From an uncultured Gammaproteobacteria bacterium (lineage in GTDB: Bacteria > Patescibacteriota > Patescibacteriia > VMEV01 > CAZAJQ01), in contig CAZAJQ010000005.1 in NCBI GenBank assembly GCA_964485795.1, positions 4,678 through 68,677 of the forward strand: DNA of 64,000 bases, written 5' to 3'. This document shows, one piece after another, positions 3,668 to 58,846 of this stretch. Position numbers and translations under genes: made by a program. The notes beneath the pieces are model-generated. The model was given only the letters and a program-made list of their open reading frames with translations. It made no database searches and was not told where the DNA came from. How positions within the stretch are numbered: position 1 is the first letter of the stretch; each line of letters begins with the position of its first letter.

Positions 3668-3895
3668 ATGGGAAACGATGGAAAGAAAAAAAGGGTCGTG
3701 AAGTCCGGCGAGGGAAGAAAAAAATGGACACGAACAAAGTCCAATCAGTCGTCAAAGGCTCCCCTCAAATGCCCCTCTCACGCTGATGAATCGTTTGAAA
3801 GTGATGATGACTACACACCAAGGCAGAAATTTGCATCAAGCGACAGCGGCAAAATCTGCTGGTTATCAAAATTTTCAGACCAATTTTACGACTAG
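3668..3895 (+). CDS. Small basic protein (75 aa), candidate gene
   Basis: AAAGGAG Shine-Dalgarno 7 nt upstream of the ATG. Lys/Arg-rich N-terminus (GKKKRVVKSGEGRKKWTRTK). Followed by a canonical intrinsic terminator hairpin plus T-run. Confidence 0.4.
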   Translation: MGNDGKKKRVVKSGEGRKKWTRTKSNQSSKAPLKCPSHADESFESDDDYTPRQKFASSDSGKICWLSKFSDQFYD

Positions 3896-3926
3896 GACAC
3901 CCTTTCAAAAGCTCCTTGATCATAAA

Positions 3927-3961
3927 AGCCCTTGCTTTGGCGGCTACAAGGGCTTTTTTTA
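3927..3961 (+). terminator. Rho-independent terminator after the small ORF
   Basis: aaagcccttg-ctttggcggctac-caagggcttttttt: a 9-bp GC-containing stem followed by a T7 run. Confidence 0.6.
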
Positions 3962-3984
3962 TTTCATTATGATTCTACTACTCC

Positions 3985-4045
3985 TGCCAAAGACAGGCAG
4001 GCCTCTGCCCTTCGGGCATCTCCCCTTGTCCAAGGGGAGAACTCA
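3985..4045. repeat. Copy of the dispersed GC-rich palindromic repeat family (CTCCCCTTGTCCAAGGGGAG core)
   Basis: cctgccaaagacaggcagg, gcccttcgggc and ctccccttgtccaaggggag hairpins. The same CCCCTTGTCCAAGGG core and GCCCGAAGGGC module recur at 15760-15800. Confidence 0.55.
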
Positions 4046-4079
4046 AATGGTATGGGTTTCCATCAACACAGTCTTCAAA

Positions 4080-5402
4080 CTAGTTTGCCGGTGCGGGAAT
4101 CAATCCCCCGCGCTCGGGCGCCACACCTTTTTCAAAAAAGCCGGTGCAAAGCTGAAAGCCGCTTGCGCGGTCGATGCCTAACAAAGTAATCTTGTTTTTA
4201 TCCGCGCTAAACTTGATCTTTGCGAGATTATTCGTGGGCGACTCGATATCCCCGGGAAATAAGGCCACATGTGTGGCTTGGTAACTTGGAAATCCGCCCC
4301 TGAAAACGACAATGCCATTTTCAGGATTGGTTTCGGGAAGCAAAGTCAGCCGCACTTCTTCGGTATCGATGGCGCTTTCCAAAATAGCCTCCTCAAAACC
4401 GCAAGAAAACCCACCGTACGAAATTTTTTTTGATTCAACCTTTCTCGGCTCGACGGCGGGAGCATTAACCGGCTTGGTGTCCTTTTTCAGACCGGTTACC
4501 ACATCGTCTTCATTGTTGTCTTCCGGTTCATCATCATTGTCGGCGGACTCGACAAAAGCTTCATGAAACAGGGCATCCGAATTTTTTTGCGATACGGCCG
4601 CATCGATCTCAATCATAAGCTTTATTTCAAAGCTTTCCTGAGGATTCAAAATATCGACACCGCAAATCGGAAGGCCAAAAAAAACCGTCGAACAATAACC
4701 CAATGTCGTAGAGACGGATTTCACCCCGGCTCCCAACGGGAGATAATCCGTGATGATCACGTCGCTTGCCACTCCGAGTCCGAGATTGGTCACTTTTATG
4801 GTATACATGAGCGTATCTCCGAGCTGTACCGTATCTTTGTCGGCCGTCATCTCCAGCGAGAGATCGGCGATTTTCGAAGGAGGAGGAATTGGCAAGGGTT
4901 GCTTTTTCTGCACCGGCACATTCGCTTGTTTAGTGTCGTCTTTTTGCAAACCCGTGATGAGGTCGGCTCGATTGTTCTCTTTGGGATCCTTGTCATTGCC
5001 GCTTGAGGCGACACGCGCGGTATTCACCAGGGTTGTCGCAGCTTCTTCCACCGTAACCGTCAGCAGGACGGAAACGCTTTGATCGGGTGATAAGCTCTCA
5101 AAATCGCATATCGGAACCCCCACGATGGTGATGCATTCTCCCCCGGCGGCGGAAAGGGACTTTACGGTCACGCCAAACGGGAGATTATCCGTCACCGTTA
5201 CATTCTTTGCGGTTTCGGGACCTCTATTCGTAACCGTCATCGTATATGTCAGGGTATCCCCGGCTTTCACACGGTCTTTATCGGCCGTCTTTTTGATCTC
5301 CAAATCCGCGACACCGGCATTATCGGGAGTTTTTTTATAGAGAAAAAAAATTCCGGTCGCAAGAATAGCGATGGAAATTCCTAAATAGATGAATTTTTTC
5401 AT
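4080..5402 (-). CDS. Secreted DUF11 (conserved repeat domain) protein with two DUF11 repeats
   Basis: Signal-like N-terminus MKKFIYLGISIAILATGIFFLY. Two repeats of the TLTYTMTVTNRGPETAKNVTVTDNLP / TLMYTIKVTNLGLGVASDVIITDYLP type with a conserved Cys pair (DUF11 hallmark). The ORF track extends the start to 5450; I trimmed it to the Met preceding the signal peptide. Confidence 0.7.
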   Translation of the reverse strand: MKKFIYLGISIAILATGIFFLYKKTPDNAGVADLEIKKTADKDRVKAGDTLTYTMTVTNRGPETAKNVTVTDNLPFGVTVKSLSAAGGECITIVGVPICDFESLSPDQSVSVLLTVTVEEAATTLVNTARVASSGNDKDPKENNRADLITGLQKDDTKQANVPVQKKQPLPIPPPSKIADLSLEMTADKDTVQLGDTLMYTIKVTNLGLGVASDVIITDYLPLGAGVKSVSTTLGYCSTVFFGLPICGVDILNPQESFEIKLMIEIDAAVSQKNSDALFHEAFVESADNDDEPEDNNEDDVVTGLKKDTKPVNAPAVEPRKVESKKISYGGFSCGFEEAILESAIDTEEVRLTLLPETNPENGIVVFRGGFPSYQATHVALFPGDIESPTNNLAKIKFSADKNKITLLGIDRASGFQLCTGFFEKGVAPERGGLIPAPAN

Positions 5403-5634
5403 ATCGAATTTTTCCATAGTATGGTACTCAAACCTAATATTCAACCTCACTTTTTCTCTTCGTATTTCGTTGCTTTAAACATGGAAAAAAATGAAGCTGC
5501 ACTGTTAAGTCAATTATTCATAAGGCATCAAGAAATAAAAGGATAATTTTTTTAAAAAAAAATGACTCACCGAGCGGATTGATTTTTCACCACTCTCACT
5601 CATTTTCGGTGAAAACATTGAAAAATTCCTGACA

Positions 5635-9264: not shown

Positions 9265-10353
9265 ATGGCCTCTTTTTTTATGAATACCGACATACTTTCG
9301 CTTTCGAAACAATTCATATCCATCCGATCCACGGCCGCAAATCCCAAAGAACGCGAACAAATATTGACACTGGCTTTATCGCATCTTACCGGATATACCG
9401 CTGAAACGTTTGAACGCAACGGCGTCAAAAGCGCTTTGATTTATAATTTTACCAAAAGGCCGAAAAAATTCAGATTGCTTCTCAACGGTCATCTGGACGT
9501 GATCCCGGCGAAAGAACATCAATTTACTCCAAAAATCGAAAACGACAGGCTTTATGGAGCCGGCTCCATGGACATGAAGGCCAATGCCGCATGCTTGATC
9601 GAAGCTTTTGCCATGACTGCGCATCAAGTTTCTTACCCACTTGCGCTTCAGCTCGTCACCGATGAAGAAATTGGCGGGTTTGACGGAACCAAATATCAGG
9701 TGGAGCAAGGCGTTTCCGCGGACTTTGTGATCGCCGGAGAACCGACGAATTTTGACATCGTGCACATGGCCAAGGGTATTTTACAGCTCAAAATTTCCGC
9801 AGCCGGAAAAACGGCTCATGGAGCTTACCCGTGGAGAGGAGAAAATGCGGTTTGGAAAATGAAAAAAGTTTTGGACATATTGCAAAAAAAATTTCCCATT
9901 CCAAAAAAAGAAGTCTGGGAAACGACTTTAAACTTGAGCAGCATCGAGTCGTCAAACAGAACGTTCAATAAAATCCCGGACGACTGCACGGTTTGGCTTG
10001 ACGTACGATTTGTACCCGAAGACGCAAAACATATTCTCAAAGATATCAAATCGTTGCTTCCAGAGGGATTCAGCGTTTTCGTGAACACCGATGAAGCGGC
10101 GCTCATGACCCCAAAAGACACCCCTGATATCCAGACTCTCAAAAAAATCACCGAGCGAATATTCGGCGACGCCATCAAACTCCGCGGTGCGAACGGCTCT
10201 TCGGACGCGCGCCACTATTCGAAGGTGGGCTGCCGCGGCATCGAATTCGGCCCCATCGGAGGAGGTATAGGCAGCGATGAGGAATGGGTGGACATACCCA
10301 GCCTGGAAACGTATTGTAAAATTCTGAAAGAATTCGTAATGACCATGAAATGA
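9265..10353 (+). CDS. M20 family metallopeptidase (ArgE/DapE-like deacylase)
   Basis: 362 aa. LLNGHLDVIPA, GAGSMDMKANAA, DEEIGG and GEPTN motifs (metal-binding His/Asp/Glu of the M20 family). Confidence 0.8.
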   Translation: MASFFMNTDILSLSKQFISIRSTAANPKEREQILTLALSHLTGYTAETFERNGVKSALIYNFTKRPKKFRLLLNGHLDVIPAKEHQFTPKIENDRLYGAGSMDMKANAACLIEAFAMTAHQVSYPLALQLVTDEEIGGFDGTKYQVEQGVSADFVIAGEPTNFDIVHMAKGILQLKISAAGKTAHGAYPWRGENAVWKMKKVLDILQKKFPIPKKEVWETTLNLSSIESSNRTFNKIPDDCTVWLDVRFVPEDAKHILKDIKSLLPEGFSVFVNTDEAALMTPKDTPDIQTLKKITERIFGDAIKLRGANGSSDARHYSKVGCRGIEFGPIGGGIGSDEEWVDIPSLETYCKILKEFVMTMK

Positions 10354-10440
10354 CACGACGTTGACGGCACCCTCGTCAACGGAATGAACACCCAGGTTCA
10401 TCCCTCCCGTTCATACACCCCTGTTAAACATGATCATTCC
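10325..10440. repeat. Dispersed repeat copy overlapping the 3' end of the M20 gene; paralogous to 12815-12925
   Basis: tgaaagaattcgtaatgacCatgaaatgacacga at 10325 matches 12815 (G instead of C) over 34 bp. It is followed by related hairpins (cgttgacgg..cgtcaacg, ccctcccgttcat...ctgttaaac). Confidence 0.6.
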
Positions 10441-12814: not shown

Positions 12815-12960
12815 TTGAAAGAATTCGTAATGACGATGAAATGACACGAAAAAGGAGGGGTATCCCCCCCCCTCCCGATTCATCCTCCTGTTTAACGCCC
12901 CCCTGTCATCCTGAGCCTGTCGAAGGATGACAGGACTCGTCAGTACCCCCCTCCTTCGAA
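12815..12960. repeat. Dispersed repeat copy (PEPVEG/VILSLSKD-type hairpin element) next to tRNA-Gly
   Basis: A 34-bp near-identical match to 10325-10358. Perfect 10-bp IR cctgtcatcc-N13-ggatgacagg. Outer IR aaggagggg ... cccctcctt. The core GTCATCCTGAGCCTGTCGAAGGATGAC is related to 39137-39163. Confidence 0.6.
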
Positions 12961-12982: not shown

Positions 12983-13055
<73 letters not shown>

Positions 13056-13275
13056 CATGAAATGAGATTCACTCACGAACCTAGCCATTCCGAGGACGTA
13101 AGAATATTGTAAAGGTATTTCTTATTTTGTCAAAGAATGGCCGTTTTTTTTGACTCTGTGAGTCTTTCATGTTACATTCAATGGCACATGAAAAATTGCA
13201 GAAAGCCGCAAAAGTTTTTTTATTTTATAAATATTTTTTTTCGAATTCTTCATTGAATTCATATCCATCCCCACC

Positions 13276-15249: not shown

Positions 15250-15594
15250 ATGCTGAAAACAACCGAGCAAATCAATGCGTATCTCCAAAAAACGCTGGCC
15301 GAAATCATCCAAAAATGGGTGGATATCCCCGATGAAACGCTCTTCACCATCACGAGAGTGCAAACCAGCCCGGATCATAAGCATGCGAAAATTTTTTTTA
15401 CTGTATTTCCTGAAATCAGGGAAAATACGGTATTTGATATTCTGAAAAAAAACATTTATTCGCTGCAGAAGCAGATAAATCAAAACTTCGCGTCAAAAAA
15501 AGCTCCCCAGATCTTTTTCACTCCCGATCTTCACGTGAAAACCGCGTACGCCATCGACACAATTTTGGATTCGCATTCTTCCGAGCAATCGTGA
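15250..15594 (+). CDS. rbfA: Ribosome-binding factor A
   Basis: 114 aa. It sits directly downstream of infB, the canonical operon order. KH-like fold signature in TITRVQTSPDHKHAKIFF. Confidence 0.8.
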   Translation: MLKTTEQINAYLQKTLAEIIQKWVDIPDETLFTITRVQTSPDHKHAKIFFTVFPEIRENTVFDILKKNIYSLQKQINQNFASKKAPQIFFTPDLHVKTAYAIDTILDSHSSEQS

Positions 15595-15636
15595 GATTTT
15601 ACAAAATGGTTTGAGCGACTTCGATGTCGCCTGTTT

Positions 15637-15658
15637 CTTCCCGTAGGGAAGATTTTTT
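15637..15658 (+). terminator. Intrinsic terminator after rbfA
   Basis: cttccc-gta-gggaag hairpin followed by a TTTTTT run. Confidence 0.55.
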
Positions 15659-15682
15659 GTTTCATTGAAACGAAAACTACTC

Positions 15683-15822
15683 GCGCTTATCGACAAAGCT
15701 CACCCCTGCCCGACTCGAAATTCACCCCTCCGTCATCCTCCGCTGCGCTCCGGATGGCACCTCCCCTTGTCCAAGGGAAGGTGCCCGAAGGGCGGAGGGG
15801 TGAGTTCCGTCGATAAGCGCGC
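15683..15822. mobile_element. MITE-like element, about 140 bp, with 25-bp terminal inverted repeats enclosing the CCCCTTGTCCAAGGG / GCCCGAAGGGC repeat core
   Basis: Left arm gcgcttatcgacaaagctcacccct. The right arm is the reverse complement of aggggtgagttccgtcgataagcgc (21/25 match). The internal sequence is shared with 3985-4045. No ORF is present. Confidence 0.5.
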
Positions 15823-15915
15823 GTTAAAGCGGTCTCCCGCTTACCGGCTTTTTCACGAAAAATTGACAAGGTATTTCGGATACCGTATCTTTGATAGTTC
15901 TCTATACATCGGACT

Positions 15916-16893
15916 ATGCAAGAATTTGAAATACTTCACAAAAAACTTCACGATGACATGCTCGAATCCGTGCACGTTCTCATCGTCATTCACCAGATGC
16001 CCGATTCGGACTGCATCGGAGCCGCGCTCGCTTTCAGCATGTATCTTGATACGCTGAAAAAAAAGAATCGCATCTTTTGCAAAAACAAACCCGGAAAACA
16101 ATTTGATTTTTTGAAAAAAATAAAAAACATCTCAGATGACATGAATTTTTTTCGTGAAAAACGCTTTTCCCATATCGTGGTTTTGGACTGTAGCGACCTG
16201 CACTATGCCGGAGTCGCGGATTTCGTCCCGCAGCTTGAATGGAAACCTCGCCCAAAAATCATCAATCTCGATCACCATGTCACCAACGAGTATTTCGGAA
16301 ATCTCAATCTCGTGGATCCATTCTCTTCATCCACGTGTCAAATACTTTACGATTTTTTCAGAAACAATCAGGTTCGCATCGACAAAGACATGGCAACCGC
16401 GCTTTTGTCCGGAGTCATCGGAGACACGGACTCCTTTTCCAATCCCGCCACCACGTTTTCATCGCTTGAATGCGCTTCTCATCTTCTCAAGCTCGGCGCG
16501 CATTTTTTCAAAGTCAGCAATCATTCTTTCAAAAACAAAACCGTTTCATCTCTTCGCGTATGGGGGAAAGTTTTGGCTCGTCTGCAGCTCAATCCGAAAC
16601 TCGGCATCGCATCCACCGTCATCACACGGGAAGATCTTTCCGAATGCGGGTCATCCGAAGAGACGTCACTTGGCATCACCAATTTTTTGAATAATCTCAA
16701 TGGAAGCAAGGCCGTGCTCGTGCTCAAGGAAACCGGCGACGGAAAAATCAAAGGCAGTCTTCGAACCACTCGCGGAAACATCGACGTTTCAAAAATCGCA
16801 AAGATTTTCGGAGGAGGAGGACACAAGAAAGCCGCAGGTTTTTCTCTTGCGGCAAAGATTCAGAAAAACGGGAAAGGATGGGAAGTCGTGTAA
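15916..16893 (+). CDS. nrnA: DHH-family phosphoesterase NrnA (oligoribonuclease / pAp phosphatase)
   Basis: 325 aa. DHH motif (NLDHHVTN), Asp-rich metal site HQMPDSDCIGAA, and the DHHA1 GGGH motif (GGGGHKKAAGF). Positioned downstream of infB-rbfA. Confidence 0.8.
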   Translation: MQEFEILHKKLHDDMLESVHVLIVIHQMPDSDCIGAALAFSMYLDTLKKKNRIFCKNKPGKQFDFLKKIKNISDDMNFFREKRFSHIVVLDCSDLHYAGVADFVPQLEWKPRPKIINLDHHVTNEYFGNLNLVDPFSSSTCQILYDFFRNNQVRIDKDMATALLSGVIGDTDSFSNPATTFSSLECASHLLKLGAHFFKVSNHSFKNKTVSSLRVWGKVLARLQLNPKLGIASTVITREDLSECGSSEETSLGITNFLNNLNGSKAVLVLKETGDGKIKGSLRTTRGNIDVSKIAKIFGGGGHKKAAGFSLAAKIQKNGKGWEVV

Positions 16894-24245: not shown

Positions 24246-27200
24246 CTACAGGACGGACTGTTTTTTCATAGCGACATCGACATTGACGATGGCCTCGTCT
24301 TTTTTGATGTCCAGCACTTGATTGGCCTTGTACACAGGGTGGTCGCTTCTCAAAGCCTTTGCCTCCGACAGAGGTTCATATCCGGTCTTTTTCACCTGCA
24401 GCTGATACTTCCCGGCTTTCGGCAGAAAATGGTACCTCCCCTCATAATCCGTAAGCCTTGATTTTAAGAGCTTCCCATACTCCGCGTCAATAATATTGAT
24501 CACCGCCAGCGCTATCGGCATCCTTGTGGCTGCATCGTACACCACTCCCCATGAACGGAGCGCCTTGGGACTGAATACCTTTTGCGCCAACCCAAACATC
24601 ACGTACAGCCAGAGTATCACCGTATTCGTCAGATTGAAACTTCCATACGTCAGAAGCACGCTTCCCGTCAACCCTATCCACAGTACCGGGCCGGATACCT
24701 TCCGTATGGCCGCCTTCATCTCGTACCATATATTCCCAAGAACGCTCATCGCAAGCTTTTCTTCCTTCACATCCGTCGGGTCTATCGGAATATTCACTCG
24801 TATGGTCACTCCTTCCCTCCCCAGCGTCAACGCTCCTCCAAGGTACAAATCTTCATATCCCGCATCCGCTCTCGTTCCAGCGGGAATCAGCTTCGATATC
24901 CCGGCATATCCCTGCTTTTGCACCTCAAGTCGATACCTTCCCTCCTTCACGAGGAATCCCAATCGACCTTGTCCGTCGGTGACGGTCGTGGAAATCAGAC
25001 GCGGTTTGGCGTTTGGCGTAGCCGTATCAACGCTGTACAATCTCACGATGGCCAATGACACCGGTTCCTTCGTGATGCTGTCATACACGACTCCCCAAGG
25101 TTGTTTCTTCTTCTTGATCCCCAGTACCGAGAGCAGCCATGAGATGAAATGATACAGGTATGCCCAGATATGCGGAATATTCGCCGCTATCGCGGGGTTC
25201 AGCAACGTCACCACCGGCGCTATAGCGATCAAGGCCACCTGGCTTGGCTTCTCCACCTTTTGTATATTCTCTTTCACTGCCAATGCGCTCTCTTTGAGTA
25301 TCCTCACCGCTTCCTGCGCCGTGATTTGCACCAAACTTTGTTCTTCCGGAATCGATATTTCCTTCCATCTCACCAGTCCTTCGAGGCTTGCGTTTCCCAA
25401 AGTGACTCTTTCGCTTCTCAGTCTTCCTTTTCGCAGCTCCGCCGTCACCGCTACGCTCTTTCGCTTTTGCGCTTCCTCCGACGTGATCGCAATCTCATCA
25501 TAGGGCACATACAGTTTCCAATTCCCATTTTCATCACTTTGCACTCGGAACGTCCCGTATTCTCCAAACGTCACATACACTTCGCTTCCCGGCGTCGCCG
25601 TTCCGGACATGGTAAATCCTTCGCTTCCGGCGTCTATGCTTCCAGTGATCGAGAATCCTTCTTCGATCAACGCCTGCTCCTCGGCCGTCGCATCTTGCGG
25701 CAATTCACCGACTCCGATACCTCCGTTTTCAAACGTTGTTTGCCCTTGCGGGTATCCTCCGACAGGGCCTTCTCCTCCCGGCTGCGTCCCGGGCTCGCTT
25801 CCCGGCTTCTTGCCGGCTTCTTCGCTCGGCGGGGATACCGGCTCGGGCGGCACTTCCGCAACAGTTTGCGGCTTGGGTGCTTCCACGATATCCACCCCTA
25901 CCGGCGTTTCTATCACTCTTTCCTGCGGAACCTCCTCCGTCGGAGGCGCTTCCTCACTCGGCACTTCGGGTTGCGGTGGACAATTTTCTTTACACGGTTC
26001 GGTCGGCAACGGCGATATCGGCAGCTGCGACGGCGGTATCACGCTTCTCTCTATCCCGCTTTCCGTGATCCCAAAGTACTTGCTCGTCACAGCGATCCCC
26101 GCTCTTCTCGCGTTCGGGTTATTGGGATCCAGCGGCGGATTCAAAGGATTCATCACCAGATTCGAAAACACCGTATTGAACCCTTCCGCATAATTTACAC
26201 TTGCTTGATTGATCAATATCCCGGGCGTTCCCACATTGCTCGGTAATTGTATTTTAAATTCCACATACCCGATCTGATTCACATTCACATTTCCGATGGT
26301 CCATACGCTCGCTCCTCCGGCCGTTGTTCCTCCGTCTCCCACATTTTGTCCGTCTTGCACTCTCGATCCGCTCACATACCCGACCTTGCTTGAAATCGGG
26401 TTGGTGATCACCACTCCCGTGGCTTTTGCGCTTCCCACGTTCTTGTACTGGATCTGATACACGATCGTATCCCCGGGGATCACTTCTTCTCCATTGTCCG
26501 CATACACCTGCTGCGCATACGTTCCCTGTTTCAGAAACATGATTCCCAAGATACCTTCCGCCATTACAACGACGCTTGCTATCCCCACCCATGCATGCAC
26601 CAAACGATGATGTCTTCTATGCACTCCGAAACTGCTGAAAAACGTCCCGTTCTTGTGTCTCTTCGCCACACTCTCAAACACCTCCACCGGATTTCCCGTC
26701 ACGATTTGTTTTTTAAACTTCATCACCAGCTTCATCTTCTGCCACCACGTGTATTTCCTTCTCCCGCTCAACAGTCCGGCGTTCTTGATCAATATTCTCA
26801 TCGAGTGCAACACCCCGTACAGCAATCCGCAGAGAACCATTCCGAGGATGATGAAAAGTATTTTCCCCCACTCTTTCTGAAAAGCGTATCCTGACACTTT
26901 CGCACGTTTCACCGTCTCTCTTGCGTTTGAAAGCTGTGCATCGACAACTTCTTCGGCCGCTTGCGCTTCGGGGATTTGCCCGAGCTGAGCACTGACTACT
27001 GATTGCTGACTCGGTATCACCCCCACATTCAGCGCTATCACCATCCTCGGGGGATTGATCTGCTGAGTTTTGACCGGAAGTTTGAAGCTGTACACCGTCT
27101 CCAATCCGTCCCCGTTTCTTGTCTTCACTCGAAATTCATACACCGTATTGGGTGTCAGATTGCTGAATTTGTAAAAACTCTTCTGCAGCCATCCGCTCGT

Positions 27201-30200
27201 CTGGATATTCCCGTTGCTCGTATTCACCGCTTCATAGAAATATGCCGTTTGTCCTCGGTAATCCTGCACTTGCTTGAGCACATCTCCTTCCGTGATCTGC
27301 TCCACATCCGCGGTGATGGTGTACCCGGCCGCTTGCGCTTGCGAGACGTCTATCACTCCATCCACTTGTATCTCGATTTCCCTGTCGCTGACCTGGATCG
27401 GTTGCACTCCTTTGGGAACTTCCGCGAGGGTGTACACGGTGGCGGTGTTTGACGCAGACGAGCTCCCCACCACGTTGAACGATTTCACTCGTCTCGTGTA
27501 TTTCGTATTGGCTTTGAGTCCGGTTTCTTCGAGGAAGGAAAGATCGCTCGTCGCATTCGGCAACGTGTCCAGAACTTTATTCCCGTTCGCATCCTCCAGT
27601 ATGAATCCCGTTTCATTGCTCGCCGTATCCGTGAAATTCCATCGTATCACGCTGCCGCTCAAGGGTGTCGGAACTCCGATAACCGGTCCCGACGGCGCGC
27701 TCGGCACCACGGGTATGCTTCCTCCCTTCGTGTAATTGAATGATGACGTTTGTCCGCATACTCCGATATTCCCGTCATTTGGCTCTATGGCAAAGATCAG
27801 ATTTTGCTGACTGCTCGTGAAATCCACTCCCGTATTCCACACGTATACATGGTCGGCTCCGGGCGTAAGCGCCGTGCTCAAACTCGTCACTCCTTGCGAT
27901 GCAGGGCTGGTCGCCGCCGTGTCTTCCGTAAGCGGGCTGACAAAGGTCGTACCTCCGTCCAATGAATACTTCGGCGTGATATTCGCCGTTCCCACCACCG
28001 TGTCGATGAGCTTGTAATTCATCACCACGCTCGATCCGCTCGCCGACGTCGGCGTCGTGATCGTCGCACTTGCGGGGTTGTTGTTATTCAGCTTAAACGT
28101 ATTCGTCGTTCCGGCGGTTCCGGCTCCGTTCAATGCGTCCGAGGGGGTGATGCGAAACTTCATCGTGCTGTTCACCGTACTCGGCAAATTCGTCGCCGAG
28201 GCCCAGATGAAGGTATGCGACACTCCCGCCACGGAACTTGCCAGTCCCGATGTCCCGTCTCCTCCTCCGGACGTCGCCGTATTCCAGCTGCTCCCGTTAT
28301 CCGTCGAATACTGCGCCACTATGCTCAGGCTGTCCGAGTTCGCATCCACAAGGCTGTAGGTGATCGTGATATTTCCGTTCACCGCTCCGCATGATGTCAG
28401 ATTCGTCACCGTCGCCACCGGCGCGTTGTTGTTGTCCACTCGAAAATTCCCCGTCTCTCCGGCCACGCTTCCCCCGTTCAAAGGCGTTACTCGGATGCGG
28501 ATCAAACTGTTATCCGTGTTCGGCGCATCCGTCATCGACGCCCATTGAAACGTTTTACTCGGCGTTCCGTTTGGCGTCGTCGTCTGCGAAATCGTACACG
28601 GTACCGATGATCCCGACGTCGCGCGGCAGCTGTCTCCTCCCGCCGACGTCGCCGCGCTCCAGGTGCTCCCTCCGTTCGTCGAATACTCGATATTGATGCT
28701 TGTGGATGCCGATCCCACGTCTGACAATGTGTAGCTGATCGGGATCGTGCCGCTTTGGCTTCCACTCGGCGTCGTCACCGTCGCATAGACCCCTCCGCTG
28801 CCGGTTCCGGACAAAACGATTTGAAACCCATCTCCTATAGGGTTCTTTTTCGCCCTCATCCTCAAAAGCGCACTCGCGCAACCCGAACACTGTGCGCTTG
28901 CGTCCCACACGAACACATGGGCAGTGCCTGTTCCGGCCGTCGCCGTCAATCCCACTTTGCCTTCCGACGCTCCTCCGCCGTCCGTGGCTGTCGTCCACGT
29001 CACTCCGCTGTCCGTCGAGAATTCCGGTGTGATGTCGTAGGAATTGGTAAATCCGGTGTCCTCGGTGAACAAACGGTGGTTGAAAGTGATATCCGTTGTT
29101 CCTAAAGTTCCCGACGTTGATGTCAATGTCGATCCGATCGTGTCGATGTAGGCCGTGCCTGCGCTACCACCTCCCGCACCGTTCGCAGTGATGTTGCTTG
29201 GTGTTAAACCCAACGCCGTATTCGCGGCATTGTAAATAATGGCAACTCGACCACCGCCTCCATTGCCGGCGCCTCCTGCAGTAACCGTTCCCGCACCCGT
29301 TATGGTGCCGCTTGAAGTTAAAAGTTTCACCGTACCTCCGGCTCCATTCCCTGATCCATCTGCCCGAATCCCTCCGCTCACGGTAATGTTCGTAGCGGAA
29401 ATATTGACAATGCCACCTCCATTTCCACTCGTACCTCCGGAACCGGGTAACGTTGGATTCTCTACGGAATCATAGACTCGGGTTCCCGACGCGCCACTGC
29501 CTGTACCTCCATGACTTCCGTTCGTATCAGCGACAGAATCGCACAATCCGTTGGCGGTATTCAATCGCGCGGTAGGACAGCCTCGCGCGTTCACATCGAT
29601 CAAACCATTCGTATTGACCGTAAGCGCATTCACCACCGTCAAATCCAATTTTCTCGTAACCGTCGACGTGGACGGTAAATGGGTAAGAGCATTGTTTCCG
29701 ACGCCACCGGGATCGTTGATGGTGACATTTTTAAAAGTAATCGCTCCTTCGAGATTTACATATCCAAAAGAAACCGCTAGATTAACGGTGTTTGGATTGA
29801 TCGTCGCAAACATGCTCGATTTTATCATTATCGACCCGGATGCCAACCCGCTGTGATATGTAATACTGTTTGTATCCGTCGTCGTGTTCCGTAAAAGCAC
29901 GGTTCCTCCGCCGGTCCCGGCTTTATCCGTGCCCGATGACCATGAAAAAGCATTAAGCGTAGTCAGAGCATTATCAGTCGTACCCTGAATGAAAATACGT
30001 CCGCCACCTCCTCCACCGGTATCAGTCCTCGCTTCAACGGTTCCTGTGCCTGTGAATGATCCGGTCGCAACCAATTTAATCGCGCCACCGGCAGCATCTC
30101 CGCTGCCTCTATTTGCGCGAATTGTCCCATTGACGACTATATTCCCCCCGGCTGAAATGCGTATCACTCCACCGCCTGCCGCGCCGGCAGCGGAACCGGA

Positions 30201-33200
30201 TCCGGGATATGAAGGATCATCAATAAAATCGTATGTACGATCAATGATATCCGCCGTAGCGACTGAATGTCCGGCGGCACCATGACTCCCATACGTATCG
30301 GCCGCCAAACTGCATTTCAAATCGCTCAACGATGGATTAAATCGAGTAGCTCCGGGACAGCCTAACCCATTCGCATCAATAAACTCTCCAGAGTCTACCG
30401 TTAAATCATTCACGACCGTCAAATCCAATTTGTTCGTCTGTGTAGCCGTGCTTGCGAAATGCGATAATTTCGAAAACCCCCCGCTCGATACCACATGTAC
30501 AGTCTTAAACGTTATCGCCGAAGGAAGTTTAATAATCCCAAAATTGATATTCAAATCAACGAGATTCGAATTTAACGCGCTAAACATCGATGGCGTATAC
30601 GTCGCATATGCGTTACCATTCCCCGTATGCATATCCATGGTGTACGTACTCGCTGTCGTGTTTCTCACCAGGACGCTGCCTCCACCTCCGCCGGGATTCA
30701 TATTCGCATAAGCAGTTCGTAACCCGGTATGTGTAATGGTTGCCGCCTCAATGTATAAACGACCGGCTCCGCCGGTTCCCGATGCAGCCGTTCTGACTGT
30801 AATTTCACCAGCCCCACTCAATGTTCCGGAAACGATAAGTTTGATACTTCCTCCCGCCCCGGATCCGCTACCGGTACCTGCTCGTATCGTTCCGCTCGCC
30901 ACGATGTTCGCTGCAGTAATTTTTATTACACCATCACCCGCGGACGTTGCTGAGCCGGATCCGGGATATTGCGGATCATCTATATAATCATAAATTCTAC
31001 TTAAAGCATTCGCTTCCGTGATACTCACCCCAACTCCTCCATGACTCCCTTCACTGTCCGCAGCCAAACTACACTTATTATCACCTCCCGCCGATGAAGG
31101 ATTGAATCGAGTCGTAGAAGGACAGCCGAGCCCATTCGCATCAATAAATTCTCCAGAGTCTACCGTTAAATCATTCACGACCGTCAAATCCAATTTGTTC
31201 GTCTGTGTAGCCGTGCTTGCGAAATGCGATAATTTCGAAAACCCCCCGCTCGATACCACATGTACAGTCTTAAACGTTATCGCCGAAGGAAGTTTAATAA
31301 TCCCAAAATTGATATTCAAATCAACGAGATTCGAATTTAACGCGCTAAACATCGATGGCGTATACGTCGCATATGCGTTACCATTCCCCGTATGCATATC
31401 CATGGTGTACGTACTCGCTGTCGTGTTTCTCACCAGGACGCTGCCTCCACCTCCGCCGGGATTCATATTCGCATAAGCAGTTCGTAACCCGGTATGTGTA
31501 ATGGTTGCCGCCTCAATGTATAAACGACCGGCTCCGCCGGTTCCCGATGCAGCCGTTCTGACTGTAATTTCACCAGCCCCACTCAATGTTCCGGAAACGA
31601 TAAGTTTGATACTTCCTCCCGCCCCGGATCCGCTACCGGTACCTGCTCGTATCGTTCCGCTCGCCACGATGTTCGCTGCAGTAATTTTTATTACACCATC
31701 ACCCGCGGACGTTGCTGAGCCGGATCCGGGATATTGCGGATCATCTATATAATCATAAATTCTACTTAAAGCATTCGCTTCCGTGATACTCACCCCAACT
31801 CCTCCATGACTCCCTTCACTGTCCGCAGCCAAACTACACTTTAAGTCTCCACTATCCGGATTAAATCTTGCACCTATTGGACAGCCTCTCCCATCGCCCG
31901 TAACCGTCCCATTCGTATTCACGGTCAACGTCTGCACCACCGTCAAATCCATCTTCCGAGTCACGGTCGCGGTTGACGGCAAATGCGTCAAACTGTTATT
32001 CGCGCCGCCCGTATCGATCATGGTGACATTTTTGAAAGTAATCGCTCCCTCCAGATTCACATGTCCAAAAGAAATCGACAAGTTCACCGTATTGGGATTG
32101 ATGGTTGCAAACATCGAGGACTTGATGAGGAGTGACCCAACAGCCAACCCACTATGATAGGTGATGCTATTCGTATCACTCGTCGTATTGCGAAGAAAAA
32201 CAGTACCTCCGCCAGTGCCGATCTTCGCCGCGCCGGCTGACCATGAAAAAGCATTCAACGTTGTCAACGAATTATCCGTTGTTCCTTGTATAAAAATTCT
32301 TCCTCCTCCTCCGGTTCCCGTGTCGGTTCTCGCTTCAACCGTGCCTGTTCCGGTGAATGATCCGGTAGCAACTAATTTAATCGCACCGCCGGCAGCATTT
32401 CCGCTCCCTCGATTCGCACGGATCGTGCCATTCACAACCATGTTTCCGCCCGCGGAAATTCTGATAACCCCGCCGCCGGCCGTTGCGTCAGACGCGCCCG
32501 ATCCAGGGTACAAAGGATTATCAATGAAATCATAAACTCGATCCTCGATGTCGGCGATTCCGACATCATTCCCTGCACCCCCGTGACTGCCTTGAGCATC
32601 GGCTAATTCGCTGCAAATAAAAGTTGTTTTATTGAATCTCTTTGAGGCTGGGCAACCCTTACCATTCGCATCAATGAATGTTCCCGCGTTCACCGTCAAA
32701 TTCCCTGTCAAAACGATGTCCATCTTTTTATACGTCGTGCTCGAATCCGAAATCGTGTGCGTCAAAATCGCCGCGTTCTGCAATGTCAAACTCGCAAACC
32801 CGTTCGCACCGGTAAAATCTCCCGTCATGTTTACCGTAATTCCGTCAATCACTATGTCGTCACCGGCAAATGTTCCCGGCGTGACCGTGCATTCTACGGC
32901 CGCGCAATTCGCCGTTTTCCAAGCGGCGTCGAGCGTCTGAATCGCGGCTATATGAAAATCTCGTTTCTTCTCTCCACTTTCTTCGAAAAACGATACATGC
33001 TCTCCTTCGTTCAAGAGATTTTCAAATATACCCATCACTTTCCCTTGCAAACCTTCTCTTTCCAGCGGTAAATATGTTTCACCGAAAAACGCCGCCGCTT
33101 CAAAAACGCTTCTTGAAGCATCCATACGACTCAAAACAAAAAAACCTCCCACCATGATGCATCCAAGGGTGAAGGTTTTTAGAATTTTTTTGAAATCTCT

Positions 33201-33257
33201 TTTTTTATTTTTACGATTCACCATAATATAAAAAAATATTCCGCGACATCCAGTCAC
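24246..33257 (-). CDS. Giant (3003 aa) multi-domain cell-surface protein. It has an N-terminal TM/signal and five Gly-rich parallel-beta-helix-like modules of about 255-380 aa. It also has four Asp-box (BNR, SxDxGxTW) repeats, two FN3-like domains and a DUF11 domain. Further along are a Pro/Glu-rich linker, an Ig-like domain, and two CarboxypepD_reg/transthyretin-like domains separated by clusters of internal TM helices.
   Basis: Single uninterrupted ORF. Motifs read from the translation: GSHGG.G...YD.IDDP.YPGSGS repeated five times; STDSGVTW / STNGGSTW / STDNGSSW / SLDGGTTF; TVTNxG-type DUF11 segment VIPGDTIVYQIQYKNVGSAKATGVVITNPI; YRLEVQKQGYAGIS and YQLQVKKTGYEPLS beta-sandwich motifs. Hydrophobic stretches appear at roughly residues 2040-2060, 2630-2680 and 2790-2860. 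The alternative start Met is at 33224. Confidence 0.8.
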   Translation of the reverse strand: MTGCRGIFFYIMVNRKNKKRDFKKILKTFTLGCIMVGGFFVLSRMDASRSVFEAAAFFGETYLPLEREGLQGKVMGIFENLLNEGEHVSFFEESGEKKRDFHIAAIQTLDAAWKTANCAAVECTVTPGTFAGDDIVIDGITVNMTGDFTGANGFASLTLQNAAILTHTISDSSTTYKKMDIVLTGNLTVNAGTFIDANGKGCPASKRFNKTTFICSELADAQGSHGGAGNDVGIADIEDRVYDFIDNPLYPGSGASDATAGGGVIRISAGGNMVVNGTIRANRGSGNAAGGAIKLVATGSFTGTGTVEARTDTGTGGGGRIFIQGTTDNSLTTLNAFSWSAGAAKIGTGGGTVFLRNTTSDTNSITYHSGLAVGSLLIKSSMFATINPNTVNLSISFGHVNLEGAITFKNVTMIDTGGANNSLTHLPSTATVTRKMDLTVVQTLTVNTNGTVTGDGRGCPIGARFNPDSGDLKCSLAADSEGSHGGVGVSITEANALSRIYDYIDDPQYPGSGSATSAGDGVIKITAANIVASGTIRAGTGSGSGAGGSIKLIVSGTLSGAGEITVRTAASGTGGAGRLYIEAATITHTGLRTAYANMNPGGGGGSVLVRNTTASTYTMDMHTGNGNAYATYTPSMFSALNSNLVDLNINFGIIKLPSAITFKTVHVVSSGGFSKLSHFASTATQTNKLDLTVVNDLTVDSGEFIDANGLGCPSTTRFNPSSAGGDNKCSLAADSEGSHGGVGVSITEANALSRIYDYIDDPQYPGSGSATSAGDGVIKITAANIVASGTIRAGTGSGSGAGGSIKLIVSGTLSGAGEITVRTAASGTGGAGRLYIEAATITHTGLRTAYANMNPGGGGGSVLVRNTTASTYTMDMHTGNGNAYATYTPSMFSALNSNLVDLNINFGIIKLPSAITFKTVHVVSSGGFSKLSHFASTATQTNKLDLTVVNDLTVDSGEFIDANGLGCPGATRFNPSLSDLKCSLAADTYGSHGAAGHSVATADIIDRTYDFIDDPSYPGSGSAAGAAGGGVIRISAGGNIVVNGTIRANRGSGDAAGGAIKLVATGSFTGTGTVEARTDTGGGGGGRIFIQGTTDNALTTLNAFSWSSGTDKAGTGGGTVLLRNTTTDTNSITYHSGLASGSIMIKSSMFATINPNTVNLAVSFGYVNLEGAITFKNVTINDPGGVGNNALTHLPSTSTVTRKLDLTVVNALTVNTNGLIDVNARGCPTARLNTANGLCDSVADTNGSHGGTGSGASGTRVYDSVENPTLPGSGGTSGNGGGIVNISATNITVSGGIRADGSGNGAGGTVKLLTSSGTITGAGTVTAGGAGNGGGGRVAIIYNAANTALGLTPSNITANGAGGGSAGTAYIDTIGSTLTSTSGTLGTTDITFNHRLFTEDTGFTNSYDITPEFSTDSGVTWTTATDGGGASEGKVGLTATAGTGTAHVFVWDASAQCSGCASALLRMRAKKNPIGDGFQIVLSGTGSGGVYATVTTPSGSQSGTIPISYTLSDVGSASTSINIEYSTNGGSTWSAATSAGGDSCRATSGSSVPCTISQTTTPNGTPSKTFQWASMTDAPNTDNSLIRIRVTPLNGGSVAGETGNFRVDNNNAPVATVTNLTSCGAVNGNITITYSLVDANSDSLSIVAQYSTDNGSSWNTATSGGGDGTSGLASSVAGVSHTFIWASATNLPSTVNSTMKFRITPSDALNGAGTAGTTNTFKLNNNNPASATITTPTSASGSSVVMNYKLIDTVVGTANITPKYSLDGGTTFVSPLTEDTAATSPASQGVTSLSTALTPGADHVYVWNTGVDFTSSQQNLIFAIEPNDGNIGVCGQTSSFNYTKGGSIPVVPSAPSGPVIGVPTPLSGSVIRWNFTDTASNETGFILEDANGNKVLDTLPNATSDLSFLEETGLKANTKYTRRVKSFNVVGSSSASNTATVYTLAEVPKGVQPIQVSDREIEIQVDGVIDVSQAQAAGYTITADVEQITEGDVLKQVQDYRGQTAYFYEAVNTSNGNIQTSGWLQKSFYKFSNLTPNTVYEFRVKTRNGDGLETVYSFKLPVKTQQINPPRMVIALNVGVIPSQQSVVSAQLGQIPEAQAAEEVVDAQLSNARETVKRAKVSGYAFQKEWGKILFIILGMVLCGLLYGVLHSMRILIKNAGLLSGRRKYTWWQKMKLVMKFKKQIVTGNPVEVFESVAKRHKNGTFFSSFGVHRRHHRLVHAWVGIASVVVMAEGILGIMFLKQGTYAQQVYADNGEEVIPGDTIVYQIQYKNVGSAKATGVVITNPISSKVGYVSGSRVQDGQNVGDGGTTAGGASVWTIGNVNVNQIGYVEFKIQLPSNVGTPGILINQASVNYAEGFNTVFSNLVMNPLNPPLDPNNPNARRAGIAVTSKYFGITESGIERSVIPPSQLPISPLPTEPCKENCPPQPEVPSEEAPPTEEVPQERVIETPVGVDIVEAPKPQTVAEVPPEPVSPPSEEAGKKPGSEPGTQPGGEGPVGGYPQGQTTFENGGIGVGELPQDATAEEQALIEEGFSITGSIDAGSEGFTMSGTATPGSEVYVTFGEYGTFRVQSDENGNWKLYVPYDEIAITSEEAQKRKSVAVTAELRKGRLRSERVTLGNASLEGLVRWKEISIPEEQSLVQITAQEAVRILKESALAVKENIQKVEKPSQVALIAIAPVVTLLNPAIAANIPHIWAYLYHFISWLLSVLGIKKKKQPWGVVYDSITKEPVSLAIVRLYSVDTATPNAKPRLISTTVTDGQGRLGFLVKEGRYRLEVQKQGYAGISKLIPAGTRADAGYEDLYLGGALTLGREGVTIRVNIPIDPTDVKEEKLAMSVLGNIWYEMKAAIRKVSGPVLWIGLTGSVLLTYGSFNLTNTVILWLYVMFGLAQKVFSPKALRSWGVVYDAATRMPIALAVINIIDAEYGKLLKSRLTDYEGRYHFLPKAGKYQLQVKKTGYEPLSEAKALRSDHPVYKANQVLDIKKDEAIVNVDVAMKKQSVL
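30395..31924. repeat. Tandem duplication inside the giant gene: two copies with a 765-bp period, about 683 bp 100% identical
   Basis: Plus-strand shadow ORFs 30736..30987 and 31501..31752 are identical in sequence. 30430..30711 matches 31195..31476. Manual comparison shows identity from about 30395-31077 vs 31160-31842. The flanking modules are diverged paralogs. Confidence 0.8.
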
Positions 33258-37696: not shown

Positions 37697-37768
37697 GCCC
37701 CTATCGTCTAGTGGTTAGGACATCAGGTTTTCATCCTGGTAACCGGGGTTCGATTCCCCGTAGGGGTG
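37697..37768 (+). tRNA. tRNA-Glu (anticodon TTC)
   Basis: GCCCCTATCGTCTAGTGGTTAGGACATCAGGTTTTCATCCTGGTAACCGGGGTTCGATTCCCCGTAGGGGTG. Anticodon loop TTTTCAT. D-loop typical of tRNA-Glu. Confidence 0.8.
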
Positions 37769-37810
37769 CAAAAAAATAGCGTAACGCTTCTATCTTCATT
37801 GATTTTCATC

Positions 37811-42485: not shown

Positions 42486-42610
42486 AAAAAAAGGTTCTCA
42501 GCAAAGAACGCCAAACGCAAGTTATAAATATCACCGGCGGGTATGCCCCTCGCATCTCTATAGGCGGCGGGATTGCCCGCCGAAGTTCGCACCTTTTGGG
42601 GCGAACATAG

Positions 42611-42685
42611 GCGGGTATCGTATAGTGGCTATTATGCTAGCCTTCCAAGCTGGAGAGGCGGGTTCGATTCCCGCTACCCGCTCCA
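42611..42685 (+). tRNA. tRNA-Gly (anticodon TCC), 3' CCA encoded
   Basis: GCGGGTATCGTATAGTGGCTATTATGCTAGCCTTCCAAGCTGGAGAGGCGGGTTCGATTCCCGCTACCCGCTCCA. Anticodon loop CTTCCAA. Confidence 0.8.
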
Positions 42686-57829: not shown

Positions 57830-57872
57830 AACTTCAAATCATATCCACTATCATAGAGCAATGATTTTCGGA

Positions 57873-57916
57873 GGGGAAGGGTAGGGGCGGATCGCGACCC
57901 GCCCCTACCCTTCCCC
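57873..57916. repeat. Perfect 18-bp-arm GC-rich palindrome
   Basis: ggggaagggtaggggcgg-atcgcgac-ccgcccctacccttcccc, followed on the plus strand by a T-rich run. Confidence 0.6.
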
Positions 57917-58093
57917 TCTGTTTTCCATTTTAAAATCTTCTTTAACACCCAAAAACATTGACATAACTCTATATTGGGTTATAATACGAAGTTCTTGATT
58001 GTTTCTTTTATTTTCTTTTTTTAAAAAAAGGAGCTGCAGCATGTCCCAAACCAATCAAAAAGTTGTCTTGATCATCACTCATGGCGAAAAAAT

Positions 58094-58846
58094 TCACCGG
58101 GATATGCTCATATTTTGACAGCCATGCAGCGATGCGATTGGATATATTGATATTTTCTTTTTGAAAATCCGCACCTTTAAACTCAACAAATCATACTGTG
58201 AATGATAAAGAGGAGTATGCTCATCGGGATAGGTAATTTCAGCGATAGTATGATCTGTTTTTGAAAGCTTACCACCGCTTTGTATTAAAAGAGTCCTCAA
58301 ATACTCGGCACCAAAACGACCTATCGCCGCCGTAATCATCAACCCGGAACAAAATCTTCGATACTCTTGCAAAAAAACTTCCCATTTCTCCGGAGTGATA
58401 GACTTGCATGCTTCGAGCGATCGCAGAAATGTATCGGCAAACGAAAGATAGGTTTGTTTAAGGTCATCGATCCTTTCTCGAGAAATTATGAGCTGGCGTA
58501 TCGCTTCATAATAGGCGTCCAAATTTTCCCGATAATAAAATACATGTGCATCGGTCCCTTGTGATATGAGCGAAAGCTGTTCCAAAGGGACATGCACTCC
58601 AAAATCAGCATTATGATGATAATGCCCATAATTGGAAAGACATTGATGCCAAAAAGACATGTTTCGACTCACGGCAAGTTCCCATGGTTTGTTTTCAAAG
58701 TTAAATATTCTTTGCATCATATATTTCCCGGTGCTGGTAATGATATCATTTGACTTGATATTCAGACACTTCAAAAAAAGCTTATAATAATCCATTTGAT
58801 AAAAAGAATCAATCCATTCCAATCCTTTTTCTCCTCCCCAAAACAC
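58094..58846 (-). CDS. Hypothetical protein (250 aa, GTG start)
   Basis: Long uninterrupted ORF in a region where the plus strand is closed. No recognisable motifs. Confidence 0.5.
   Translation of the reverse strand: MFWGGEKGLEWIDSFYQMDYYKLFLKCLNIKSNDIITSTGKYMMQRIFNFENKPWELAVSRNMSFWHQCLSNYGHYHHNADFGVHVPLEQLSLISQGTDAHVFYYRENLDAYYEAIRQLIISRERIDDLKQTYLSFADTFLRSLEACKSITPEKWEVFLQEYRRFCSGLMITAAIGRFGAEYLRTLLIQSGGKLSKTDHTIAEITYPDEHTPLYHSQYDLLSLKVRIFKKKISIYPIASLHGCQNMSISR

Follow-up and report, generated by a model that had tools for sequence, protein, structure and literature searches.

The intrastrand triplex motif of Escherichia coli, known as BoxC, PIT or TM_ECO (Holder et al., 2015; PMC4666352, where the earlier BoxC and PIT work is also recounted), is a strictly intergenic repeat in which one DNA strand carries, in order, a pyrimidine (Y) arm, a loop, a purine (R) arm, a second loop and a G-rich segment. 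Its stems are 8–9 nt long with at most one mismatch, its triads (G*G-C and A/T*A-T) are those of class II, and copies can occur as inverted pairs. The biological role of intrastrand DNA triplexes is unsettled, and the E. coli BoxC/TM motif itself has biophysical support and no known function. Here we analyze a 146-bp element with these same properties, which lies between rbfA and nrnA in a 64,000-nucleotide stretch of contig CAZAJQ010000005.1 (the whole stretch is termed the window) from a small Patescibacteria genome, and which is best read as a hairpin-spacer, two-sided variant of the BoxC/PIT/TM class with private outer arms.

Several other groups of short repeats are similar to the element in their general features. 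REP/BIME and the RIME-type repeats of Rhizobium are short, GC-rich, imperfect intergenic palindromes that occur singly or in mosaics and as inverted pairs. The Correia/NEMIS, ERIC and RUP elements are bacterial miniature inverted-repeat transposable elements (MITEs), non-coding units of 100–160 bp with terminal inverted repeats (TIRs) and a long hairpin, which lie between genes, may carry promoter or terminator signals, and are present in many copies with the same termini and with target-site duplications (TA for Correia), several of them having a cognate transposase. Sizes and copy numbers of NEMIS and ERIC have been compiled (PMC2267715). On a much smaller scale, two reports describe the d(GCGAAGC)/d(GCGNAGC) mini-hairpin (PMC13037366) and d(GNA) triloops (PMC3201870), that is, C-GNA-G tips, as very stable DNA structures, known as a biophysical motif in short oligonucleotides. 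Both strands of the element have tips of this kind, C-GAA-G for plus and GCGCAGC for minus.

The element departs from the BoxC/TM_ECO consensus, CCCTCNCCC N3-6 GGGNGAGGG N3 GGGNGAGGG, both in its stems, which are CCTCCCC(T/C)/GGGGAGG/GGAGGGG rather than CCCTCNCCC/GGGNGAGGG/GGGNGAGGG, and in loop 2, which is a hairpin of 12–28 nt capped by C-GNA-G rather than 3 nt. It is also two-sided around one shared hairpin, unlike BoxC/TM_ECO. TM_ECO has been reported only from proteobacterial genomes and not from phages or plasmids (PMC4666352), whereas the hairpin-spacer variant is found in viral contigs, plasmids and Patescibacteria, and the physical triplex evidence in that report concerns TM_ECO and not the hairpin-spacer variant. 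By blastn the element has no match in 5,426 E. coli genomes or in phages, and a BoxC-type triplet, CCCTCTCC/GGAGAGGG/GGGTGAGG, is among the family variants that were recovered. REP/BIME repeats differ from the element in lacking a mirror-related third segment, and neither a REP-type signature nor a RAYT (Y1 transposase) gene was seen in the window, Y1_Tnp being absent from the open reading frames (ORFs) scanned with Pfam. A literature search for the spacer sequence and for reports of MITE or REP repeats in Patescibacteria returned nothing relevant.

Structure of the element

The element is bounded by the inverted-repeat pair 15679-15707/15796-15824, which was ranked first by the repeat finder among the inverted repeats listed for the window and which consists of 29-nt arms, complementary at 25 of 29 positions (86%), with 88 nt between them. 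An initial annotation, made from the sequence alone, had described the segment as MITE-like with 25-bp ends matching at 21 positions; recounted, the left arm gcgcttatcgacaaagctcacccct (15683-15707) is complementary to its partner (15796-15820) at 22 of the 25. The arms combine the 13-mer CGCGCTTATCGAC with the 9-mer CTCACCCCT, both of them perfect and in the same register, for which we estimate a chance expectation of ~1e-6 per window. Several other features in that annotation hold up. The segment does lie between rbfA and nrnA and is preceded by a terminator-like hairpin, where it had been placed after the rbfA terminator. It is GC-rich (63.7%) compared with the two halves of the flanking spacer (38% and 42%) and with the window (46%). 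It is also non-coding: the ORFs that cross it have no Pfam match and its six reading frames, compared with 5.8e9 proteins as a check for spurious ORFs on other copies, gave no match. The RNA fold prediction that had been suggested was run, and both strands fold strongly relative to shuffled sequences (z = −7.4 for plus and −7.7 for minus with RNA parameters, and z = −6.2 with DNA parameters).

When read 5′ to 3′, the plus and minus strands are organized alike, with a Y arm, a loop, an R arm, a spacer hairpin and a G-rich segment that mirrors the R arm. The segments beyond the two spacer hairpins, TTCACCCCTCC on the left and GGAGGGGTGAG on the right, are mutually complementary, and because this copy is two-sided, both strands carry a triplex-type motif. 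A motif scan of our own making in the style of ITxF, using the class II rules of PMC4666352 with loop 2 relaxed to 30 nt, identified two GC-rich class II motifs and no more in all 64 kb of the window, one on each strand of the element, compared with none in 100 dinucleotide-shuffled windows. The plus-strand motif is CCTCCCCT / AGGGAAGG / GGAGGGGT and the minus-strand motif is CCTTCCCT / AGGGGAGG / GGAGGGGT, each forming 8 triads with one mismatch, such that the stems on both strands lie within the class II limits of ITxF (6–15 nt, C-G*G and T-A*A/T, at most one mismatch). The published search allows 1–6 nt for both loops. Loop 1 of the element is within this range at 6 nt, whereas loop 2, with 12 nt on the plus strand and 28 nt on the minus strand, is itself a hairpin on both, and for this reason the element is a variant beyond the published limits. 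The core of the module, written as a single DNA strand, is CCTCCCCTTGTCCAAGGGAAGGTGCCCGAAGGGCGGAGGGGT, and perfect versions of it are present in two of the related loci (L129 and L135).

The inner 9–11 nt of each TIR (CTCACCCCT / AGGGGTGAG) do not represent a transposon end, but are the third-strand segment of the triplex-type module and its complement. When the reverse complement of 15782-15822 is aligned with 15682-15720, three parts are seen to be repeated on the left in inverted orientation, namely the flank on the right, the third segment and the initial four bases of the spacer hairpin, after which the similarity decays; 15699-15720 thus resembles an inverted and decayed version of the right spacer hairpin and third strand. 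The outer 13–20 bp of the arms, which are private to the window copy, most likely arose by inverted duplication or by a template-switch extension of the palindrome, and would not be transposase binding sites. At 15834-15848 the terminal motif occurs a third time in a weaker form, which reads CTCCCGCTTACCGGC, matches the left end at 12 of 15 positions and overlaps a small hairpin that adjoins the element. This hairpin is possibly a vestige of the same duplication process and its membership in the element is uncertain.

The repeat family

A search by blastn against plasmids gave a short match in the intergenic spacer of a urease operon on a plasmid of Deinococcus aquaticus, with 22 bases identical to 15779-15800. 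The exact 22-mer, AGGTGCCCGAAGGGCGGAGGGG, is present in four contigs of IMG/VR, where we estimate that ~0.01 would be expected, and these contigs are unrelated and range from 52 to 71% GC. Looser anchors yielded 11 family members in IMG/VR, and further members are located on the D. aquaticus plasmid and on a Neorhizobium plasmid, with a variant having a different spacer on a Shinella plasmid. In all members the order of the parts is the same, namely Y, a variable loop, the complementary R, T plus a GCCC-GAA-GGGC hairpin, and a G-rich segment that is R backwards; positions 15760-15801 of the element fit the corresponding family definition (Y, R, T/G with a stem, C-GNA-G loop and stem, and a mirror-image G-rich segment). 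The generic pattern CCTCCCCC..GGGGGAGG..GGAGGGGG matches 120 or more viral contigs, where copies can be as dense as five in 10 kb, the GC content of viral contigs with members being 50–73%, and members are also found in genomes of many phyla, at loci labelled as Margulisiibacteriota, Acutalibacteraceae, Aeromonadaceae, Bradyrhizobium, Verrucomicrobiae, Nitrospinota, delta-proteobacteria and others. A scan of genome contigs with CTCCCCTTGNNCAAGGG (15 specified bases) gave 16 loci with a triplex-type motif on the seed hairpin among the 118 listed, and blast comparison of the listed loci revealed no homology beyond the seed. As judged from these matches, the family is shown to be widespread and to have a high copy number in some genomes. 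Two-sided copies, in which the complement of the third segment lies 5′ of Y, account for 151 of 822 matches, and the two-sided architecture of the window element is therefore a recurrent form. Another Patescibacteria genome (L082, 42% GC) contains two such copies, both intergenic, within 8 kb.

When members are compared, the three segments co-vary as expected from the purine-motif triplex rule (C-G*G, T-A*A/T). Of 14 spacer-anchored members read by eye, seven have an R that ends in G with a third strand that begins with G, the other seven have A at both of these positions, none is discordant, and in 10 the corresponding base of Y is the matching C or T. These counts were taken from direct reading of the sequences; the automatic table assigns L128 and L140 an incorrect Y arm that lies far away. 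The length of the G-run (3, 4 or 5) also changes in step in all three segments. An unbiased set of 42 distinct sequences was obtained by anchoring only on GGGG....TGGCCCGAAGGGCC, which leaves half of R and the whole of the third segment free. In this set the third segment is GGAGGGGG or GGTGGGGG when R is GGGGGAGG, GGGTGGGG when R is GGGGAGGG, and GGAT... or GGAA... when R is GGGGAAGG. Under the mirror rule 7.36 of 8 positions fit, compared with 5.36 under the direct rule, and when third segments were permuted among the sequences none of 10,000 permutations reached the observed mirror fit. The third segment runs parallel to Y and hence cannot pair with it in the Watson-Crick sense. Opposite an A-T pair the third strand uses A or T freely, which is the degeneracy characteristic of the purine (reverse-Hoogsteen) motif, and according to the account of the field in PMC4666352 this motif forms in DNA and not in RNA.

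The spacer between R and the third segment has its own regularities. Loop 2 lengths across the family are bimodal, being either 2–5 nt, as in BoxC, or 14, 16, 18 or 20 nt, and the long ones are hairpins with co-varying stems. Of the 210 distinct hairpin spacers, 146 (70%) have a C-GNA-G loop (GAA in 83, GCA in 40, GGA in 18 and GTA in 5).

Some copies are parts of larger units. On Deinococcus and Rhizobiaceae plasmids (L128 2915-2955, L140 1404-1460 and L141 1406-1450), a C-rich-first module of the form CCCCTCAC.. / CCCCCTCA(C/T)CC.. - GC-rich spacer - CCCTCTCCCC - loop - GGGGAGAGG stands ahead of the G-rich-last module, and together the two build an imperfect palindrome that is larger, at ~125 bp, and whose left part is also present on other Deinococcus plasmids. 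On one high-GC viral or prophage contig with five copies (L213), the module is contained in a longer unit that shares ~170 nt on its 3′ side and ends in a C-rich CCCCCTCCACCCC...TCCCCCTCCCC block, while on another with four copies (L191) only the module itself is conserved, which is a mosaic behaviour. The C-rich-first plus G-rich-last composites of the Neorhizobium, Shinella and Deinococcus plasmid copies, and the longer composite of L213, are in this respect like RIME mosaics.

Interpretation and proposed fold

Based on its architecture and on the family to which it belongs, the element is probably a two-sided (palindromic) copy of a BoxC/PIT/"triplex motif" type of GC-rich intergenic repeat, and would be a structure that acts at the level of DNA rather than a transposon or an RNA gene. 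When one strand becomes unpaired, as could happen in replication, repair, transcription or cruciform extrusion, it would fold back on itself, with the Y/R hairpin forming first and the spacer then closing as a very stable C-GNA-G mini-hairpin. This mini-hairpin may serve as the hinge of a natural triplex-type repeat, allowing the G-rich segment to lie along the purine arm, in antiparallel orientation, within the major groove of the first hairpin (G*G-C, A*A-T and T*A-T). The predicted product is a class II purine-motif intrastrand triplex.

Several observations weigh against this interpretation. Each strand motif includes one imperfect triad, and loop 2 (12 and 28 nt) is longer than the published 1–6 nt. 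If the hairpin and the G/C-rich composition of the locality are taken as given, 6–8% of local shuffles per side contain a third-strand match by chance, and the complementarity of the two sides makes them dependent on each other; with such a local chance rate, the case for a triplex rests on the family and not on the window copy. At the family level, a direct, non-mirrored control pattern still matches 93 viral contigs, many of these being tandem hairpins or overlapping runs, and a small number of subfamilies, instead of numerous independent changes, may underlie part of the covariation. The C-rich strand of copies in phage contigs is in most cases the sense strand for a gene whose start lies 10–25 nt beyond the purine arm, which leaves room for a role at the RNA level or in translation. 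Mismatches in the stems favour the G-rich strand only weakly (T.G in 66 versus C.A in 38) in a count that is biased by the filter, and they were rejected as a means of choosing the strand.

A bolder and more doubtful proposal is that the module is a distinct single-stranded-DNA-folding element of bacteria and phages that is kept under selection for a purine-motif DNA triple helix, as suggested by the multi-state, three-way covariation, the fold perhaps being the structure recognized by an enzyme that works on single-stranded DNA in mobilisation, priming or repair. If selection for the triplex were real, the family would supply natural comparative evidence for the in vivo importance of an intrastrand DNA triplex, and if an enzyme did recognize the fold, this could account for near-identical copies in Patescibacteria, Deinococcus, Rhizobiaceae and uncultured phages. 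The hairpin-spacer variant makes a biological role of intrastrand DNA triplexes testable, since it offers many diverse sequences, a third segment that tracks the purine arm and a DNA-specific hinge. This class of repeat escapes Rfam as well as current triplex finders, which are limited to loops of up to 6 nt. Family-level covariation is a more interesting lead than the window element itself.

Alternative explanations

The designation of the segment as a MITE in the initial annotation implies a non-autonomous transposon that was inserted between rbfA and nrnA with the core as its cargo, and whose TIRs of 25–29 bp are bound by a transposase encoded elsewhere in the genome. Its size and non-coding, GC-rich nature within AT-rich flanks, the long inverted repeat at both ends, the TA dinucleotides near these ends, the weaker third copy of the terminal motif just beyond the right end, and a spacer that is ~290 bp longer than in relatives are all in keeping with such an element. 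Yet the termini, which in a MITE like Correia/NEMIS, ERIC or RUP would be shared by many copies, have no second copy in the window, in the 3.0 Mb of loci fetched beside family members (~800 family matches) or in IMG/VR, and in the JGI metagenomes the terminal-repeat pattern gave only two matches, both by chance and inside coding DNA. The same pattern scans of IMG/VR and the JGI metagenomes found no insertion sequence with matching ends. A convincing target-site duplication is likewise missing; at the junctions (...gaaaact/A...T/taaagc, the slashes marking the element borders) the sole candidate is a TA, displaced by one base at one end relative to the other and, at 2 bp in AT-rich DNA, uninformative. 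No transposase, integrase or Y1 domain was detected by Pfam in ~45 of the larger ORFs of the window, in agreement with the annotators' own remark on transposases. The inner third of each arm belongs to the repeat module, and the other copy in the window (4002-4039) does not have such ends. Two contigs from different Logan runs cross the element unbroken. Logan assemblies use a short k, and these contigs are thus weak evidence against other near-identical copies. The inverted repeat, the non-coding and GC-rich character and the dispersed core of the original description stand; shared termini at other loci, target-site duplications and a transposon end in the inner part of the TIR are not supported as far as these searches reach. 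The MITE explanation is weakened by these searches and is now unlikely, and the window annotation is better corrected from a MITE to a two-sided copy of a triplex-type structural repeat.

A structured regulatory RNA had also been considered, in which case the segment would be transcribed as the 3′ untranslated region of rbfA, the leader of nrnA or a small RNA, and would act through its RNA fold as a stabiliser, a terminator or insulator, or a translational regulator. The predicted folds of both strands are very stable (z ~−7.5), phage members often have the C-rich strand as sense with the purine arm (GGGGGAGG/GGAG, resembling a Shine-Dalgarno sequence) 10–25 nt before a start codon, ATG 4046 at the second site of the window comes 6 nt after the purine arm, and pyrimidine-motif triplexes can form in RNA (PMC4666352). 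However, A/T exchange opposite A-T would put A into the third strand of a C-rich RNA, which is not a canonical pyrimidine-motif triple, and the spacer loops are C-GNA-G DNA mini-hairpins and not the GNRA or UNCG tetraloops of RNA. The element lies 3′ of a terminator-like hairpin with a T-run and 5′ of the promoter-like site of nrnA, is absent from the nearest relatives, and on neither strand of the window does the module come just before a gene. In Rfam, only tRNAs reach the gathering score in the window, searches of 15550-15950 and 3800-4250 at E ≤ 10 gave noise and nothing credible, and no family covers the motif in 13 related loci. As the signatures of the family point to DNA folding, an RNA is quite unlikely. 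It is also conceivable that the element is a local palindrome with no family function, its G-run/C-run hairpins having been extended by template switching and its likeness to other sequences being convergence in a small sequence space. The private outer arms, the left side that resembles a decayed inverted copy of the right spacer and third strand, and the chance rate of third-strand matches in local shuffles would fit with this, as would the presence in the window of pyrimidine/purine hairpins at 12852-12875 and 57867-57921 that share GGAGGGG and have no third strand; moreover, the blastn E-value of the Deinococcus match (9e-5) ignores the GC-rich composition of the Deinococcus genome. What convergence does not explain are the exact 22-mers common to unrelated viral contigs of different GC content, the several states of three-way covariation with their permutation result, the strongly preferred C-GNA-G spacer loops with co-varying stems, and the density of up to five copies per 10 kb. 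These argue for a constrained and propagated family rather than independent accidents, and make a purely local palindrome improbable.

Other identities were considered and rejected. The G-tracts allow only weak, two-tetrad G-quadruplexes, which leave the covariation of the C-runs unexplained. As a DnaA box, the outer-arm sequence TTATCGACA would deviate at one position that is critical, and there is no origin context. An integron attC site, a retron, 6S, SRP or Y RNA, and a riboswitch were dismissed because the partner genes or Rfam matches are missing and because relatives do not have the element.

Genes around the element

The positions of the parts of the element and of the neighboring features are summarized in Table 1.

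Table 1. Coordinates of the element between rbfA and nrnA, its parts and nearby features in the window
Feature	Position (strand)	Remarks
rbfA	15250-15594	PF02033
Terminator-like hairpin with T-run	15636-15652	5′ of the element
Outer left arm of inverted repeat, ACTCGCGCTTATCGACAAAG	15679..15698	Holds perfect 13-mer CGCGCTTATCGAC; private to the window copy
Outer C-rich segment CTCACCCCT, then GCCCGACTCGAAA	15699..15720 (+)	CTCACCCCT is the complement of the right G-rich segment
Inner C-rich segment TTCACCCCTCC	15721..15731 (+)
Minus-strand complement of inner C-rich segment, GGAGGGGT	15731-15724	Third-strand (reverse-Hoogsteen-type) segment of the minus-strand motif
Spacer hairpin 1, stem GTCATCC/GGATGGC	15732..15758 (−)	Tip GCGCAGC (15748-15742) on the minus strand, a C-GCA-G DNA mini-hairpin
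Central polypyrimidine/polypurine hairpin GGCACCTCCCCTTG-TC-CAAGGGAAGGTGCC	15756..15785	13/14 pairs; common to both strand motifs
Y (pyrimidine) arm CCTCCCCTT	15760-15768	Part of the central hairpin
R (purine) arm AAGGGAAGG	15773-15781	Part of the central hairpin
Spacer hairpin 2, T-GCCC-GAA-GGGC	15782..15793 (+)	C-GAA-G mini-hairpin loop on the G-rich (+) strand
G-rich third-strand segment GGAGGGGTGAG	15794..15804 (+)	GGAGGGGT mirrors the purine arm; 7/8 triads obey C-G*G / T-A*A,T
Outer right arm of inverted repeat, TTCCGTCGATAAGCGCGCGT	15805..15824
Small hairpin AAGCGG-TCTC-CCGCTT	15829..15848 (+)	Adjoins the element
Promoter-like site TTGACA-17-TATCTT	15863-15891	3′ of the element
nrnA-like gene, DHH/DHHA1	15916-16893	Pfam
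Second family member, one-sided, partly decayed	3996..4045 (−)	Y TCTCCCCTT, R AAGGGGAGA, T-GCCC-GAA-GGGC, AGAGG(cctg); 6/8 triads

The exact RbfA protein is found only on two short Logan contigs, which come from different runs and are both identical to the window across the spacer. The best non-self homologues of NrnA are 58% and 51% identical, and those that have names are labelled as Patescibacteria group. In the two nearest relatives that keep the infB-rbfA-nrnA order, the gap between rbfA and nrnA is 33 bp and 12 bp, compared with 321 bp in the window, and nothing in these gaps resembles the element. It looks like an insertion or expansion in the rbfA-nrnA spacer, and because the relatives have so short a gap with nothing similar in it, the entire 321-bp spacer, including the terminator-like and promoter-like sites, is derived in this lineage. 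Hence rbfA and nrnA, contiguous in relatives, are here parted by a spacer with its own terminator-like and promoter-like sites, and the element is present where, in a small Patescibacteria genome, an infB-rbfA-nrnA order that is otherwise compact has been interrupted. A distant relative whose NrnA is 51% identical has, in one assembly, an rve-type transposase gene directly 5′ of nrnA (L126, 6497-7528).

The second site and other repeats in the window

The second family member is located 40 nt past the stop codon of a DUF11 gene (4080-5450, minus strand), and its best core match to the element is in inverted orientation at 4002-4039 (38 nt at 87% identity), which confirms the earlier remark that the same hairpin modules are present at 3985-4045. 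It has no copy of the terminal inverted repeat. The core is thus dispersed as described, but within the window the term multi-copy amounts to one full element and one partial core. Both copies are intergenic, giving two family members in 64 kb. On the plus strand of the second site (4019-4189), ATG 4046 stands 6 nt beyond the purine arm AAGGGGAGA and is the start of a 47-codon ORF that runs antisense to the last part of the DUF11 gene. Family members in phage contigs share this arrangement, with the purine arm 10–25 nt ahead of a start codon.

A candidate third copy at 39125-39170 (CCTCCCCTTGTC ... TGCCGAAGGGTG) aligns poorly and lies in the region of a Wzy_C ORF end and the tsaD promoter, and it was left as doubtful. 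The same two sequences are the center of a 24-nt inverted repeat (83%) at 39077-39180, which lies in the last codons of the Wzy_C-family ORF (37766-39217) and shares bases with a promoter-like TGcTACAAT just 5′ of the tsaD ATG at 39185. Another purine/pyrimidine structure, the near-perfect "superhairpin" GGAGGGGAAGGGTAGGGGCGGATCG / CGACCCGCCCCTACCCTTCCCCTC at 57867-57921, has 24-bp arms (~−48 kcal/mol) and is intergenic between a PAP2 gene and ORF 58094-58846; it shares the GGAGGGG motif with the element, presents the purine arm first on both strands and has no third-strand segment. The same motif is found in a GGAGGGG-TAT-CCCCCCCCCTCC hairpin (12852-12875) that comes directly after the second copy (12816-12849) of a 34-nt direct repeat, near a tRNA at 12984-13056. 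The first copy of this repeat (10325-10358), which is 97% identical to the second, forms the 3′ end of an M20 peptidase gene, and the two copies, which bracket 2.46 kb, could be the att-like ends of an insertion.

Elsewhere in the window, a 3003-aa ORF on the minus strand (24246-33257) has weak matches to fn3, DUF11 and CarboxypepD_reg and contains internal repeats of ~300 nt (96% and 74% identical), in a region with 50–55% GC, compared with 46% for the window, and strongly negative GC and AT skews. A stable hairpin (−30 kcal/mol) at 42560-42620 lies directly 5′ of, and overlaps the 5′ end of, the tRNA at 42611-42682, the sequence 5′ of this tRNA being complementary to its start.

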